Below are positions 30,108 through 35,016 of a DNA stretch of 64,000 bases, piece by piece. The translations under genes and the position numbers were made by a program. The DNA is from Dehalococcoidia bacterium (GTDB taxonomy: Bacteria > Chloroflexota > Dehalococcoidia > Lucifugimonadales > JAGWBF01). Each line of letters opens with the position of its first letter. Within the stretch, counting starts at the first letter, position 1. Below the pieces are notes generated by a model. That model had not been told where the DNA came from, made no database searches, and was given only the letters and a program-made list of their open reading frames with translations. The DNA lies in assembly GCA_965207935.1 (NCBI GenBank), contig CBDBNM010000002.1, positions 185,055 through 249,054 on the forward strand. The letters are read 5' to 3'.

Positions 30108-31376
30108 CTAAACGATTCCCGCTTCCCTAAGGCGGTCCAGCCCCTCATCATCCAGTCCCAGCCACTCTCTGTACACCTCATCGTTGTGCTCGCCCAAAGC
30201 GGGCCCACCGTGGGCAACCGCTCCCGGCGTGGCGCTGAACTTGGGCACCACTCCCACCATCTTCGTTTTCCCCAAGTCAGGGTCATCGACGTCGATTATG
30301 TCGTCCCGCACTTGGTAGTGGGGGTCCGCCACGATCTGGGCGATGTCGTAAACGGGGCCCACGACGCCTCCGGCGGGCACCAGCAAGTCCATCACCTGCT
30401 CCAAGGTCTTGTCGGACATCCATCCCTGGAGGATGACATTTAACTCATCCCGGTTGGCCACCCTGGAGGGGTTGTTCAGGAAACGGGCGTCATCGATTAG
30501 CTCGGGCCTGCCTATGGCCCTAGCCAAGTCTTCCCAGGTGGCCTGGGTTGTGGCAGAGAGGCCAATCCACCTTTCATCCATGGTCTTCAGCATGGTGCGA
30601 GGCGCCGCATCGGGAAACTCGTTGCCCACCCGGTGACGGACTATGTTCAGCAGGTCGTATAGGGTGACGTACGGGATCGCCATGCGGAACAGGGGCTCGA
30701 ACAAGCTGACATCCACCACCTGCCCTTGACCCGCGCCGCCAGCATCCCGGTGGTGCAAGGCCATCACCGATGCCATGGCCCCGAACAGGCCCGCAACCTC
30801 GTCGCCCATAGGCACGGGGGGAAGCATGGGCGGGGTGTCAGGGAAGCCGGTCATGGCTACCATGCCGCTCATGCACTCGGCGACGGTGCCAAAGCCCGGG
30901 CGGTCCTTATAGGGCCCCGTCTGACCGTACCCCGAAAACCGCACGATCACCAGCTTAGGATTGACTTTGGCAAGCTCGTCGGGGCCTAATCCCCAGCGCT
31001 CCAGGGTACCGGGACGGAACCCCTCAACCAGGATATCAGCCCCCTTGGCTAGGTTCTTGAGTATCTCCTGGCCTTCAGACCGGCGCAGATCGAGGGTAAT
31101 GGACTTCTTGTTCCGGGAGTGCACCTTCCACCAGACTGACACCTCATCCAGCCCCGCGTTTTCGGCCGCTTCAGATGCGCCATCTTCGCCGGATCCACGG
31201 TGAGAGGGATAGAAGGGCCCCCACCTGCGCAGGGCGTCACCCACTCCGGGCTGTTCCACCTTGATCACCTCGGCGCCGAAGTCCGCCAGCATGCTGGTGG
31301 CTGTGCCTCCGGCGATTATGGTGGACAAATCCAGCACCTTGACGCCAACCAAAGGCCCCTTCTGCTCATTAGCCAT
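30108..31376 (-). CDS. Class III CoA transferase (CaiB/BaiF family)
   Basis: LADFGAEVIKVE, RNKKSITLDL, SGYGQTGPY..RPGF, MGD. Confidence 0.92.
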   Translation of the reverse strand: MANEQKGPLVGVKVLDLSTIIAGGTATSMLADFGAEVIKVEQPGVGDALRRWGPFYPSHRGSGEDGASEAAENAGLDEVSVWWKVHSRNKKSITLDLRRSEGQEILKNLAKGADILVEGFRPGTLERWGLGPDELAKVNPKLVIVRFSGYGQTGPYKDRPGFGTVAECMSGMVAMTGFPDTPPMLPPVPMGDEVAGLFGAMASVMALHHRDAGGAGQGQVVDVSLFEPLFRMAIPYVTLYDLLNIVRHRVGNEFPDAAPRTMLKTMDERWIGLSATTQATWEDLARAIGRPELIDDARFLNNPSRVANRDELNVILQGWMSDKTLEQVMDLLVPAGGVVGPVYDIAQIVADPHYQVRDDIIDVDDPDLGKTKMVGVVPKFSATPGAVAHGGPALGEHNDEVYREWLGLDDEGLDRLREAGIV

Positions 31377-31446
31377 GAACGCATCTCCCGTAGGGCATCA
31401 TTGTGGCGGGATTATAGCAAAGGCGCCCGACTGCCTTGGGCCGATG

Positions 31447-31476
31447 TTGACACGAGGGTTCCCCGCCCATTAGCAT
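31447..31476 (+). promoter_or_regulatory. Sigma70-type promoter for the ABC transporter leader
   Basis: TTGACA (31447-52), 18 nt, TAGCAT (31471-76); GTG begins after a 6-nt gap. Confidence 0.55.
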
Positions 31477-31482
31477 TTGGGC

Positions 31483-31589
31483 GTGAAACCTGTTTTTCTC
31501 CCCTGCATTCGCCCCTCGGCCTTCTCCTCTGGCTTCACCTGAGGCTGATGCCCCACAGAGCCCGGTGAAGCTTCTGCGGTTTTTGATTT
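31483..31589 (+). promoter_or_regulatory. Putative leader peptide/attenuator with tandem TGA codons and alternative hairpins
   Basis: GTG 31483 MKPVFLPCIRPSAFSSGFT-TGA-GGC-TGA-TGC; stem 31532-39/31564-71 competes with hairpin 31553-31579 followed by TTTTT. Confidence 0.45.
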
Positions 31590-31678
31590 CCTAGCTCCTC
31601 CAGGGGCCATCCCCTGACTATTCCTTGCAGCTAAGCCCTCGGCCTACCTTGCCCAGCTACGCTCATGAAGGGAGATGT

Positions 31679-32593
31679 GTGCAATTCTTCAAGCTAAACG
31701 TTACGGCATCCAAGCTCCTGGCCCTCGCCGTCCTGATTTTGCTATTTGCCGCCATCACGGCAACGACAGCCTGCGACGGCGGAGATGGGCACACCCCCGT
31801 CTTGACCATTGGCGGCATACCTGACCAGGATGTCGCCCTCCTGACCCGGCGCTTCGAGACTGTCTCCAACTACCTTTCCGATAAGCTGGAAATTGAGGTG
31901 CGCTACATCCCCAGCCTCTCTTATGCGGCCCTGGTCACCGCCTTCGAGCAGGGTGACATCCAACTGGGCTGGTTCGGGTCACTCACTGGAGTACAAGCCC
32001 GGGAGGCAGCCCCAGGGTCCCAGGCTATTGTTCAGAGAGCGCGGGATGCTGGGTTTCATTCGATCTTTATTGCCGGAGCCGGTGTAGAGGCAGATGGTCT
32101 GCAGGACCTTGAGGGACTGACCTTTACCTTTGGAAGCGAAAGCTCCTCCTCGGGCCACCTGATGCCCCGATACTACATGGTAGAGGAAGGGGTCGATCCC
32201 GATGAGGACCTGGCCGGCGTACCCGGCTACTCGGGAAGCCACGACAAGACGTGGCAGCTCGTCGAGACCGGCTCATACCAGGCGGGCGCCCTGAGCGAAG
32301 CTGTCTGGGAATCGGCCGTCGAGGACGGTCGGGTGGACACCTCCAGGGTCAATGCCTTCTACACCACGCCTCCCTACCACAACTACAACTGGTCGGTGCG
32401 CGCCGATGCCGATGCCACCTTCGGGGACGGATTCACCCTGAGGCTGCAGCAGGTGCTTGTCGGTCTGGACCCGTCGGTCGAACTAGAGGCGGAAATCCTC
32501 GACTTGTTCAACGCTGAAGCCTTTGTCGAGACCACCAACGAGAACTACGGCGCCATCGAAAAGATCGCCCGGGATTTGGACATCATTCGTTGA
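31679..32593 (+). CDS. PhnD-family ABC substrate-binding lipoprotein, putative selenate-type
   Basis: Lipobox-like TAC; IPDQD, WFGSLTGVQAR, FTFGSESSSSGHLMP, SGSHDKT, TPPYHNYNW, FGDGF. Confidence 0.85.
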   Translation: MQFFKLNVTASKLLALAVLILLFAAITATTACDGGDGHTPVLTIGGIPDQDVALLTRRFETVSNYLSDKLEIEVRYIPSLSYAALVTAFEQGDIQLGWFGSLTGVQAREAAPGSQAIVQRARDAGFHSIFIAGAGVEADGLQDLEGLTFTFGSESSSSGHLMPRYYMVEEGVDPDEDLAGVPGYSGSHDKTWQLVETGSYQAGALSEAVWESAVEDGRVDTSRVNAFYTTPPYHNYNWSVRADADATFGDGFTLRLQQVLVGLDPSVELEAEILDLFNAEAFVETTNENYGAIEKIARDLDIIR

Positions 32594-33366
32594 GCACTTC
32601 GGCCAACGGGCTCCAGCCCGTGTATGTCCTGCAGGGGGTAACGAAGACCTACCCTGCCGCCAGGGCTCTTGATGCCATCGACCTGACCATATCGCCGGGG
32701 GAGCGGGTCGCACTTCTTGGGCCCAGCGGCAGCGGCAAGACCTCCCTGCTCCACGTTATGGGCGGCATCGTCCTCCCTGATTCGGGGACAGCGACCATCG
32801 ACGGACAGCCCCTCCTCGACCTGAGCTCCGGGAAGAAGCTGGCCGGCATGGTGGGCATGATCCACCAGCAGTACGACTTGGTACCCCACCTGCCGGTCAT
32901 CCACAACGTGCTCGCCGGTAGGCTGGGTCTGTGGAGCACCCTGCGCTCCCTTTTGTCCCTGGTTGTGCCCCAGGAACGGAGGCTGGCCGCCGATGCGCTT
33001 GCAACCTTAGGCATTGGCGACAAGTTGCACGAACGCACTTCCAGGCTATCTGGGGGTGAGCAGCAGCGAGTTGCCATAGCCCGCTTGCTGGTACAGGCCC
33101 CCAGGGTAATCCTGGCCGACGAACCGGTAGCCTCCCTGGACCCCGCCAGGGCCGAGGCGCTGATGGACCTCCTGAATGATGTGGCCGACCGCTCCAGCAA
33201 CACCGTCGTGGCCAGCCTCCATTCGATACATCTGACCCGGAAGTACTTCTCCAGGGCCATCGGATTGCGCAAGGGCCGGCTGCATTTCGACATCCCGGTG
33301 GGCCTGCTTGACGATGACCTGCTGGAGGAGCTCTACGACATCGAAGGGCTGGATGGCGAGACCTAG
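32590..33366 (+). CDS. ABC transporter ATP-binding protein, PhnC-like
   Basis: GPSGSGKT, NVLAGRLG, LSGGEQQRVAIAR, LADEPVASLDP, SLH. Confidence 0.93.
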   Translation: MSTSANGLQPVYVLQGVTKTYPAARALDAIDLTISPGERVALLGPSGSGKTSLLHVMGGIVLPDSGTATIDGQPLLDLSSGKKLAGMVGMIHQQYDLVPHLPVIHNVLAGRLGLWSTLRSLLSLVVPQERRLAADALATLGIGDKLHERTSRLSGGEQQRVAIARLLVQAPRVILADEPVASLDPARAEALMDLLNDVADRSSNTVVASLHSIHLTRKYFSRAIGLRKGRLHFDIPVGLLDDDLLEELYDIEGLDGET

Positions 33367-34150
33367 CGCCAGCTTCCTGCAGGGCCGGAGGCTACTCAGC
33401 CTCGCCCTGCTGGCCGCCCTGGGGTGGAGCGTATTGCAGGTCCAGTGGGGCCAGCCCATCATCCACGGAGGAGGCTTAGGAGCGGCCGCGGATCTGCTCA
33501 GGGCCTTGTTCAACCCTGAGCTGTCCCCCTCTTTTCTCAGCACGGTCCTGAAGGCAAGCTGGCACACCATCGCATACGCCTTCGGAGGCATCACCCTGGC
33601 AGTGGCCTCGGGCTTCACTCTGGGAGTAGTCGCCTCGGGCGTGCTCGCCAAGTCTGCCCCCGGCCGCTGGTCCATGATGGTCGGCACCCGCGGGCTTCTG
33701 GCCCTGATGCGGGCCATCCACGAACTGGTCTGGGCATGGCTGTTCGTTGTGGCCATAGGGCTGTCGCCCATGGCTGCCATACTGGCGCTGGCCATCCCCT
33801 ACTCTGGGATACTGGGGCGCATATACGCGGAGATACTCCAGGATGTGCCCGAGGAACCCCTGAGGGCTCTGAGAAGCTCTGGAGCATCGGAGTGGCAGGT
33901 GCTGCTCTACGGACGGCTGCCCGCAGCGTTGCCCGACATGCTCAGCTACACCTTCTATCGATTGGAGTGCGCAATCAGGGCCGCGGCGGTCATGAGCTTT
34001 GTCGGCGTGGCCGGCCTGGGGTTTCAGATACAGATATCCCTGGATGATCTGCGGTTTTCGGAGGTCTGGACCCTGCTGTTCGCCCTGGTCGGGATCATTC
34101 TCCTTATAGACCTGTGGAGCACCTGGGTACGCAGGAGCTTGGTGCGATGA
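33353..34150 (+). CDS. ABC transporter permease, PhnE-like
   Basis: RAIHELVWA, GILGRIYAE, YRLECAIR, GLG. Confidence 0.9.
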   Translation: MARPSASFLQGRRLLSLALLAALGWSVLQVQWGQPIIHGGGLGAAADLLRALFNPELSPSFLSTVLKASWHTIAYAFGGITLAVASGFTLGVVASGVLAKSAPGRWSMMVGTRGLLALMRAIHELVWAWLFVVAIGLSPMAAILALAIPYSGILGRIYAEILQDVPEEPLRALRSSGASEWQVLLYGRLPAALPDMLSYTFYRLECAIRAAAVMSFVGVAGLGFQIQISLDDLRFSEVWTLLFALVGIILLIDLWSTWVRRSLVR

Positions 34151-35016
34151 GCGCCATCGCACGACAGCTCATCAGGCCGTTCACAGGGACGGTGAGGCTG
34201 TCCCTCATCATCTTCTTTGTCCTGGCTTCCGCATCGTGGGCATTCATCCTGTCCGACTCCAACAGCGGGTTCCCGGACCTGTTCAGGGCGCAGACCTGGA
34301 GCGGCGCCGCAAGCTTCGTCGGCAAACTGGCCGGGGTGGGAGAAGCGGGCACTCCGGCCTTCCTGCAGGCCGGCCGGTGGGCGGAGACGGGCATACTGGC
34401 ATCCCAGACCCTGGCCATGAGCATCCTTGCCATAGTGTTTGCCGGGACCGGGGCGCTGCTGACTTTTCTGCCGGCCGCGCGGAATGTGGCCATGGGCGAG
34501 CTATCACCCCAGAGGCGCGCTATGCCCGGGTGGGTCCTGCTCCACTACATCGTCCGCGGCACCTTCATGCTGACCAGGGGGATACCGGAGCTGGTATGGG
34601 CGATGCTGATAATCATCTTCCTCTCCCCTGGGATCCTGCCCGGCGCTGTGGCCCTGGGGCTCCACAACTACGGCATACTCGGAAAGCTTTCGGCAGAGGT
34701 GGTGGAGGACATGGACCCCAGGCCTGCCCGCTCTCTAAGGGCATCTGGGGCCGGGGCATTCCAGATGATGGCCTACGGGATAATCCCCCAAGTGCTCCCC
34801 CAGTTCATCACCTACCTGCTGTACCGGTGGGAGGTCGTGATACGGACGACAATAGTGGTGGGATTCGTCAGCGCCGGAGGCCTGGGCATGGACTTCCGGC
34901 TGAGCATGAGCTTCTTCCACTACAGCGACGTTGCCCTGCTGTTGGCGTGGTACCTGCTGCTGGTCGTCGGCATCGACATGCTGTGCGCGGGTCTGCGCAA
35001 GCTCATCAGGGAATAG
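34147..35016 (+). CDS. ABC transporter permease, PhnE-like (second)
   Basis: RGIPELVWA, ALGLHNYGILGKL, YRWEVVIR, AGGLG. Confidence 0.9.
   Translation: MSAIARQLIRPFTGTVRLSLIIFFVLASASWAFILSDSNSGFPDLFRAQTWSGAASFVGKLAGVGEAGTPAFLQAGRWAETGILASQTLAMSILAIVFAGTGALLTFLPAARNVAMGELSPQRRAMPGWVLLHYIVRGTFMLTRGIPELVWAMLIIIFLSPGILPGAVALGLHNYGILGKLSAEVVEDMDPRPARSLRASGAGAFQMMAYGIIPQVLPQFITYLLYRWEVVIRTTIVVGFVSAGGLGMDFRLSMSFFHYSDVALLLAWYLLLVVGIDMLCAGLRKLIRE

Follow-up and report, generated by a model that had tools for sequence, protein, structure and literature searches.

In this study, a stretch of 64,000 nucleotides from the genome of a Dehalococcoidia bacterium (contig CBDBNM010000002.1, positions 185,055 to 249,054; hereafter the window) was analysed, with a focus on a short leader region that precedes an operon for an ATP-binding cassette (ABC) transporter. 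An earlier reading of the letters (hereafter the original prediction) had proposed that this leader is an attenuator, which senses selenocysteine (Sec) at in-frame UGA codons of a short upstream open reading frame (uORF) and controls a putative selenate transporter. The first gene of the operon encodes a substrate-binding protein (SBP) matching TIGR04553 above the curated cut-off, in agreement with that assignment. The features of the locus, in window coordinates, are:

31447..31452, +: −35-like hexamer TTGACA (direct reading and promoter scan; invariant in five congeners)
31471..31476, +: −10-like hexamer TAGCAT, separated from the −35 by an 18-nt spacer and ending 6 nt before the GTG at 31483
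31483..31542, +: leader uORF, with a GTG start, 19 sense codons MKPVFLPCIRPSAFSSGFT and then UGA at 31540-42 (direct reading)
31511..31600, +: near-invariant leader block of the genus (80-88 of 90 positions identical to five congeners)
31531..31572, +: fold A (31531-39 with 31564-72 and 31543-46 with 31559-62), enclosing both TGAs (folding)
31543..31548, +: GGC followed by the second stop, TGA at 31546-48 (TAG in the congener G001; genus alignment)
31553..31579, +: fold B, a SECIS-like or terminator-like hairpin (31553-61 with 31570-79) with the loop CCGGTGAA at 31562-69 (folding)
31580..31589, +: U-rich tract TTTTTGATTT, directly after fold B
31580..31666, +: C-rich, G-poor spacer (rut-like; base composition)
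31595..31616, +: CTCCTCC box (anti-Shine-Dalgarno-like) and the hairpin CAGGGG-CCAT-CCCCTG at 31601-16 (scan and genus alignment)
31670..31681, +: Shine-Dalgarno sequence GGGAG(A) (31670-75) and GTG start (31679) of the SBP gene; GGGAGA-N3-GTG is kept in congeners
31679..32593, +: substrate-binding lipoprotein, TIGR04553 'putative selenate ABC transporter' (322.5 bits, cut-off 250)
32590..33366, +: ABC ATPase, PhnC-like (TIGR02315, 225 bits, under its cut-off of 266)
33308..34150, +: ABC permease 1, PhnE-like (profile match)
34114..35016, +: ABC permease 2 (BPD_transp_1, 43.1 bits)

The promoter, the GTG, the 19-codon uORF, the TGA GGC TGA run and both folds were found exactly where the original prediction had placed them. 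A promoter scan of positions 31000-32000 returned this one site only (TTGACA-18-TAGCAT; 0.2 expected from shuffled sequences), and to judge from its position transcription probably starts at or just before the GTG at 31483, hence the uORF would be leaderless. Past the second TGA, the uORF frame continues with TGC and meets its next TGA at 31615-17.

Conservation of the uORF and its UGA codon

The leader was compared between the genome of the window (G000) and five congeners. BLAST searches with the intergenic DNA gave matches in four of the five congeners and a metagenome contig supplied the sixth sequence of the genus (a metagenome scan for close relatives returned one further genus member and one unrelated locus only). 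In the SBP gene, identity to the congeners is 0.54-0.73 at third and 0.85-0.94 at second codon positions, so that the leader block 31511-31600 is better conserved than even the second codon positions and, by this comparison, is under purifying selection. The frame and length of the uORF are intact, with no insertions or deletions, in all six genus members; its first eight codons vary freely and its last 11 show mostly synonymous changes (TCT/TCC, TTC/TTT, CGC/CGT, CCC/CCT). The second stop is retained as a stop in six of six members (TGA in five, TAG in G001), which would be relevant only given occasional read-through of the first UGA, and positions 31549-31579 are invariant across the genus. 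In G001 the remaining intergenic region has diverged, yet the leader block is retained. The same locus (L026) has an insertion of approximately 170 nt between the conserved block and the transporter start, which is flanked by two CATGAAGG(G)AGG copies, pointing to a duplicated Shine-Dalgarno region, and contains the short tandem repeat GACAGGCTCAG; it resembles a small insertion element or a duplicated segment.

Cysteine codons are not among the conserved features. The original prediction had emphasised a cluster of UGA and Cys codons (U-G-U-C) after the uORF; G001 has TAG in place of the second TGA, two congeners have TAT or TCC where the window has the subsequent TGC, and the Cys codon at position 8 of the uORF is replaced by His or Tyr in congeners. 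A Cys-sensing leaderless uORF of the mycobacterial type, for which one may cite the single Cys codon of the uORF and the TGC after the second TGA, was rejected on these grounds, and each of the 29 peptides listed holds at most one Cys. It shares a very small residual probability with a tiny selenopeptide gene having a function of its own. The latter would fit a UGA followed by a hairpin; against it stand the frame read after the UGA, which is one codon long here, four in L027-29 and from 14 to more than 28 elsewhere and bears no coding signature, and the peptide read through with TGA as Sec, which matches no NCBIfam family. A frameshift reading was also discarded, since no slippery pattern was seen by eye at TTY-ACY-TGA.

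To extend the comparison beyond the genus, upstream regions of transporter homologues were taken from two sources, 61 related genomes and a species-genome collection (80 loci), giving 104 loci with 99 distinct upstream regions. These were searched for the pattern GGN-T[TA]Y-[AGT]CN-stop (Gly-Phe/Tyr-Thr/Ala/Ser followed by any stop). The search returned 39 matches, all of which end in TGA, none in TAA or TAG. Two were set aside as chance matches (one falls within the transporter gene, and one belongs to a long open frame 587 nt upstream), which leaves 37 Dehalococcoidia/Chloroflexota loci with a short uORF (12-29 codons) ending in Gly-Phe/Tyr-Thr/Ala and TGA. The next in-frame stops are mixed (TGA 13, TAG 14 and TAA 9; n=36, as one frame ran off the stored sequence before a stop), therefore TGA does not reflect a general local bias. 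Since the pattern fixes the first two positions of each codon, only wobble variation and stop identity are informative, and the wobble bases of the 35 distinct sequences do vary (Gly: C20/T5/G3/A7; Phe: C24/T11; Thr: C22/T12/G1). Within the family, the residues before these (P-Q-R-F-H-T) likewise show synonymous variation only, and the base after the UGA is G in 33 of the 35 distinct sequences.

The promoter geometry recurs as well: in 29 of the 37 leaders a TTGACA-like −35 is followed, after 17-18 nt, by a TAnnnT −10, whose end lies 6-10 nt (mostly 6-7 nt) before the start codon. On this comparative evidence, the leaderless placement is a conserved design. Thus the uORF, its leaderless layout, the first UGA and a hairpin after it, as foreseen in the original prediction, persist well outside the genus. 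Bacillota and Clostridia transporter loci that were screened contained no such uORF.

The conserved block might instead be mainly a DNA operator or a site for a protein or small RNA, with the uORF incidental. The thirty bases invariant in the genus (31549-31579) would suit such a site, and the conservation of AT-rich promoter spacers in the family's other genera could point to an additional transcription factor; however, the three-base periodicity of the variation, the use of all four Gly codons, the fixed distance from promoter to start and a UGA that stays invariant while the leader otherwise diverges between classes make this explanation improbable. The spacers in question (17-18 nt, in L030-L039) share AAATA(T/C)C.TCAAT, which hints at a DNA-binding regulator acting besides the leader.

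The leader occurs once per genome. A covariance model of the family-type leader gave exactly one match in 12 of the 28 genomes of the family, and 11 of these adjoin the transporter locus, the twelfth (in G022) lying at a contig end, apart from a truncated SBP gene. The 16 genomes with no match mostly lack the transporter, and others have a leader of another class; G006 has a transporter with no leader of any class, and in G024 the transporter is at a contig start with its upstream sequence missing. The G-F-T-TGA motif is found four times in G000, which is approximately the chance level, and only at this locus in a leader context; the core of fold B is unique in G000 up to three mismatches. A scan with TTYACYTGAGNNNNNGCCTGG of 401 Dehalococcoidia genomes, in which the family of the window was not sampled, gave two matches, both by chance and with no adjoining transporter. 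A wider regulon was accordingly rejected, and by these distributions the leader is dedicated to the transporter operon. Two Dehalococcoidia loci with no uORF (L035 and L040) show other candidate operators, one type being the palindrome TTGACTATATTAATAGTCA over the promoter. The Bacillota/Clostridia loci L059, L069, L078, L083 and L107 have no leader, and Bacillota loci carry repeated (T)ATCGATAA boxes. Where the leaderless uORF is lacking, the transporter family is, on these sequences, likely under transcription-factor control.

It is very probable, to judge from the sequences compared, that the window holds a real cis-regulatory leader peptide with a selected UGA, because several features agree: the uORF has a coding signature, its stop is always UGA, the promoter has a recurrent geometry, the leader is present in single copy and tied to the operon, and in the genus it is better conserved than coding DNA.

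RNA folds, spacer and selenium machinery

Fold A is the local minimum-free-energy structure (minimum free energy or centroid −21.3/−20.2 kcal/mol); within the genus it differs at a single position, where G001 has U for C31536, which still allows a G-U pair and is also a synonymous Phe change. Fold B, folded alone, reaches −8.5 kcal/mol with one mismatch and one bulge. In the genus the two folds exclude each other; they show no covariation there because their sequence is invariant. As fold A is far stronger, its 5' arm (31531-46) must be covered for fold B to form, and this arm is the position of a ribosome standing at the UGA or at the second stop.

In each lineage a stem-loop follows directly after the UGA, and its sequence differs between leader classes. 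The leaders of the other genera of the family have an outer stem just after the UGA-G and an inner stem AGAGGC/GCCTCT 14 nt after the UGA; in this family-type hairpin 91.7% of cells are paired, versus 39-53% with a slid partner, and one pair changes in a compensatory manner between A-U and G-C (five times each). A second class has a 6-bp stem 12 nt after the UGA, with 92.3% of cells paired (35-65% when slid) and one pair with G-U/A-U/G-C changes. Relative to the UGA, fold B occupies the position of the inner stem of the other genera. In bacterial SECIS elements the apical loop lies roughly 16-37 nt after the UGA. The loop of fold B begins 19 nt after the first TGA, and the loops of the other classes, measured by eye, 14-20 nt after it, so that an in-frame UGA is followed at short distance by a stem-loop of bacterial SECIS geometry.

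The host genome (2.5 Mb) has the machinery for Sec that the original prediction presupposed, namely selB (316 bits), selD and tRNA-Sec (70 bits). One in-frame TGA was found in selD and in six of 11 AhpC-TSA matches (peroxiredoxin-like open reading frames), and by this count G000 is rich in selenoproteins. In selD and these six AhpC-TSA-family genes (C2:644450-645373, C2:1089565, C1:593536, C1:269353, C2:1360031, C2:1054024 and C1:405792) the TGA stands at the expected redox motif. The termination factor Rho is also encoded (580.8 bits). A selB gene is present in 55 of the 61 related genomes and exceeds the cut-off in 35 of the 36 leader-carrying genomes searched, including G000, the exception being the genome of L079 (G481). 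In the genus of the window and several other lineages the selB model matches well only at positions 2-350, with a weak C-terminal piece, so that the C-terminal mRNA-binding domains are divergent; in other genera the match covers positions 2-580. No correlation was found between this divergence and leader class. The divergent neighbour of the transporter operon is a family III CoA-transferase gene (30108-31376), and GGGATTATAGCAAAGG at 31408-31425, kept in four congeners, reads on the minus strand as TTGCTATAAT, a perfect −10 for this gene.

The spacer between leader and operon is C-rich. Measured between a point 50 nt past the UGA and one 12 nt short of the SBP start, it contains 0.42 C and 0.19 G in G000, and C exceeds G in all 34 spacers measured (mean C 0.37 and G 0.23, versus 0.31 and 0.31 in the coding DNA of the operon); three of the 37 leaders, with spacers shorter than 40 nt, were left out. 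Anti-Shine-Dalgarno-like CTC(T/C)CC boxes recur, as CTC(T/C)CCAGG in other genera. Because fold B would be a poor terminator, the spacers are C-rich and the CTC(T/C)CC boxes recur, Rho-dependent or translational control is in general at least as likely as intrinsic termination. To judge from the alignments, the expression platform seems to differ between genera, and the terminator/antiterminator detail would be valid for the genus of the window at most. In other genera of the family (L030-L039), a second conserved block, CCTCTCCAGGCTTGCACACCGTGAGTGCTGCATG.GACT...AGTCGC...GTGTGCA, lies approximately 107-156 nt after the leader UGA and comprises a long-range stem GCACAC/GTGTGC with an inner hairpin GCGACT/AGTCGC; the downstream block of family-type leaders carries CTCTCCAGG/GCACACCGTGAGTGC. 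The second block matches no Rfam family, it may be the expression platform of those leaders, and of it the window keeps only CTCCTCCAGG and TTGCAG.

Proposed mechanism and competing explanations

Our tentative assignment, held at slightly under even confidence, is that the leader regulates, from its 5' end, an operon of four genes encoding an ABC importer for a selenium oxyanion. The best reading of the event that it senses, for which the chances are roughly balanced, is Sec decoding, a variant by relief of arrest included. Its preference is based on the family of the transporter, a host rich in selenoproteins, a hairpin placed like a SECIS, the second stop that is kept, and the precedents for SelB acting on a SECIS-like leader and for selenium acting via translation at UGA. 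In its specific form, which we put a little short of an even chance and draw partly by analogy, the leader would be a sensor of Sec decoding capacity, i.e. of a race at the UGA between release factor 2 (RF2) and Sec-tRNA(Sec), with a SelB-binding hairpin, and would control a selenium importer.

The mechanism would proceed as follows. From the leaderless start, a 70S ribosome would translate the 19-codon peptide right behind RNA polymerase, finish the selected G-F-T and then meet the selected UGA, with fold B 10-14 nt further on. When Sec-tRNA(Sec) and SelB are scarce, RF2 would end the peptide and the ribosome would leave; fold A (−20 kcal/mol) would then form and block fold B, and the transporter genes would be expressed (ON). 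When Sec-tRNA and SelB are plentiful, SelB would engage fold B and Sec would be inserted slowly, after which the ribosome would advance by one codon, park at the second stop and so keep the 5' arm of fold A covered. In this state fold B and the U-tract would persist, and expression would drop (OFF), either by termination or by loading of Rho on the C-rich spacer. The role of the second stop would be to keep the ribosome parked, not running on and melting fold B. The arrangement of these elements is our ground for inferring where transcription starts, that Sec is inserted and SelB bound, which sign the regulation has and what serves as expression platform.

A number of observations weigh against this mechanism, or against parts of it. 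(i) Thermodynamically the folds do not stand out from shuffled sequence (z of 0.06 over the entire leader and of −0.63 over 31520-31595; mean z of −0.73 over the 37 leaders, 15 under −1 and three under −2), and the case for more than chance is therefore based on conservation. (ii) Fold B is weak as a terminator, with an imperfect stem that the terminator scan missed; the U-tract after it, of which TTTTTGA is kept in five of six genus members, is replaced by TCCTTGAATT in G001 and is missing in other leader classes. Of the terminator-like hairpin in the original prediction, the hairpin and the U-tract thus stand in the window, whereas the stem is weak (−8.5 kcal/mol) and the U-tract is not universal. 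(iii) In other genera only scattered 4-5-bp matches to fold A were seen by eye; the mutually exclusive folds that had been predicted both exist here, but fold A lacks a consistent counterpart there. (iv) The leader hairpin does not resemble the SECIS elements of its own genome. Compared with the SECIS stems that G000 has in selD and in several peroxiredoxin-like genes, it starts approximately 6 nt closer to the UGA: its stem begins 10-14 nt after the UGA and has an 8-nt loop, versus 18-21 nt and 4-5-nt loops in selD, prx1 and prx4 (the last two being two of the six peroxiredoxin-like genes). No sequence similar to it was found elsewhere in G000. In the family, selD has the SECIS GGACC-TGGTC-GAGGTCC, which begins 18-21 nt past the UGA and whose apex resembles the short alternative hairpin GCCT-GGTCAG-AGGC of family-type leaders, not fold B. 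(v) Among the loci with no match to the first pattern (23 Chloroflexota and one Actinomycetota), 23 of 24 have no such uORF. (vi) selB is present in 19 of 20 genomes with no uORF and in 17 of 18 with one, which gives no discrimination; as selB is nearly universal in these lineages, the leader cannot be correlated with it. (vii) The length of the read-through tail ranges from one to more than 28 codons. (viii) Sec insertion by SelB at the leader UGA is something that we infer from sequence elements and context. (ix) A plain race between RF2 and SelB does not require the conserved G-F-T, which suggests an effect of the nascent peptide at the stop codon, as in TnaC or PepNL.

The last point leads to an alternative that keeps selenium as the signal. 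In an arrest peptide, G-F-T would hinder RF2 at the UGA, and the resulting default stall would be relieved by Sec-tRNA delivered by SelB; the dwell time of the ribosome, not an intrinsic terminator, would then set the access of Rho or the exposure of the Shine-Dalgarno sequence. A conserved C-terminal peptide with an RF2-specific UGA is found in all 37 loci, the last three residues being kept in all classes and about nine within the family, with wobble variation, and the uORFs, at 12-29 codons, are short enough for the exit tunnel. The irrelevance of tail length and sequence is what would be expected if only relief of the stall counts, and the C-rich, G-poor spacers (34 of 34 leaders), the presence of Rho and the lack of a U-tract in most classes are consistent with this version. 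There is also a precedent in PepNL, in which arrest at UGA is relieved by read-through (PMC11890864). On the other side, a stall at low selenium would, in the genus of the window, mask fold A and favour fold B, which is a physiologically odd sign, and would leave the C-rich spacer 31580-31666 uncovered; moreover, three conserved residues are few for such a peptide, whose stalling is predicted from sequence. We consider this version, its coupling to Rho or the Shine-Dalgarno sequence included, unlikely, at roughly one chance in five.

The same conservation of peptide and UGA could belong to an RF2-specific leader peptide unrelated to Sec, similar to TnaC or PepNL, which would respond to another signal (the transported anion, the level of RF2 or near-cognate read-through) or exert constitutive polarity, the hairpin being a pause or structural element. 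Both TnaC (PMC8450073) and PepNL (PMC11890864) act at UGA, the hairpin differs from the SECIS elements of the genome in loop and spacing, and the distribution of selB does not discriminate. Yet the sole leader-bearing operon encodes the binding protein of the selenium-linked TIGR04553, selB passes the cut-off in 35 of the 36 leader genomes searched, the genus keeps a stop two codons beyond the UGA, suggesting read-through, and the loop at 14-20 nt after the UGA fits SECIS geometry. In our estimate this explanation, its view of the hairpin included, has roughly one chance in five, and Sec decoding remains the preferred reading of the leader.

Comparison with known systems

To our knowledge, the sensing and balance of selenium in bacteria are largely unknown, few regulatory mechanisms have been described, and uptake systems have been assigned mostly by genomic association. 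The original prediction knew of no described Sec-codon attenuator, and none was found here in Rfam, NCBIfam or the literature searched. With Rfam 15 there was no match at gathering score in the window (only chance-level E-values of 3.5-7.2 in 31300-31750), and ten related loci gave none at E ≤ 0.1. A search of the literature on Sec leaders, uORFs, attenuation and the transporter, which did not extend to most subscription journals and supplements, returned no Sec-codon leader and no regulator of the transporter.

If the proposed mechanism is true, the leader would be the first attenuator of the amino-acid type built on a recoded stop codon and a direct sensor of selenium status, adding a stop-codon-recoding member to the repertoire of attenuators and arrest peptides, and it would provide the first regulatory evidence for a role of TIGR04553 transporters in selenium uptake. 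The element is compact (approximately 110 nt) and suited to reporter tests, and its signature (promoter, leaderless uORF, G-F-T-UGA-G and hairpin) may serve as an annotation aid for selenoprotein-rich Dehalococcoidia genomes.

In common with trp/his-type attenuators and those of mycobacteria, where leaderless poly-Cys uORFs act as attenuators (bioRxiv 10.1101/834739), there is a short leader open reading frame right behind the promoter, leaderless as in mycobacteria; in 37 loci such a frame, recognised by its coding signature and presumably translated, lies between promoter and operon. As in the trp/his type, the frame would contain a codon for the monitored aminoacyl-tRNA, predicted exclusive folds lie over its end, and the operon would supply the monitored nutrient. 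The differences are that a single UGA replaces the run of sense codons, the C-terminal peptide itself is conserved, the terminator is weak and genus-specific, and a ribosome that does not decode the codon would be released by RF2 and not stalled.

In the E. coli selAB operon, SelB-GTP-Sec-tRNA bound to a SECIS-like element of the 5'-untranslated region represses expression, with the hairpin 3 nt from the Shine-Dalgarno sequence (10.64898/2026.03.03.709296). The leader described here resembles it in having a SECIS-like hairpin that would feed selenium status back on an operon of the selenium pathway. Unlike selAB, which has neither uORF nor UGA, it has the hairpin directly after an in-frame uORF UGA and approximately 90 nt upstream of the Shine-Dalgarno sequence (31579, the last position of fold B, versus 31670-75), so that the adjacency of a selAB-type operator is absent. 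In Treponema primitia fdhF-Sec, selenium controls transcript elongation via translation at UGA/SECIS (PMC3892789), and in both cases the fate of the ribosome at a Sec UGA would decide that of the downstream RNA; the T. primitia element is inside a selenoprotein gene and selenium turns it on, whereas here a dedicated leader precedes a transporter and the sign is probably opposite.

With TnaC and PepNL the leader has several traits in common: the uORF is short and strictly ends in UGA, the C-terminus of its peptide is conserved, and the leader is C-rich and a candidate for the Rho type. There is no sequence similarity, and arrest is predicted here only by analogy. In PepNL, arrest at UGA is relieved by a UGA-reading tRNA (Trp-tRNA; PMC11890864), a function for which the candidate here would be Sec-tRNA brought by SelB to the adjacent hairpin. 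With the SECIS elements of the same genome it has in common a hairpin downstream of an in-frame UGA. Between GCCTGGT(C/T)AGAGGC, a leader sequence of the family's other genera, and the selD apex ACCTGGT(C/T)(G/C)AGGT there is a partial likeness. By its sequence, the element appears to join known principles, namely leaderless leader peptides, SECIS-like operators and stop-codon arrest, in a previously undescribed combination.

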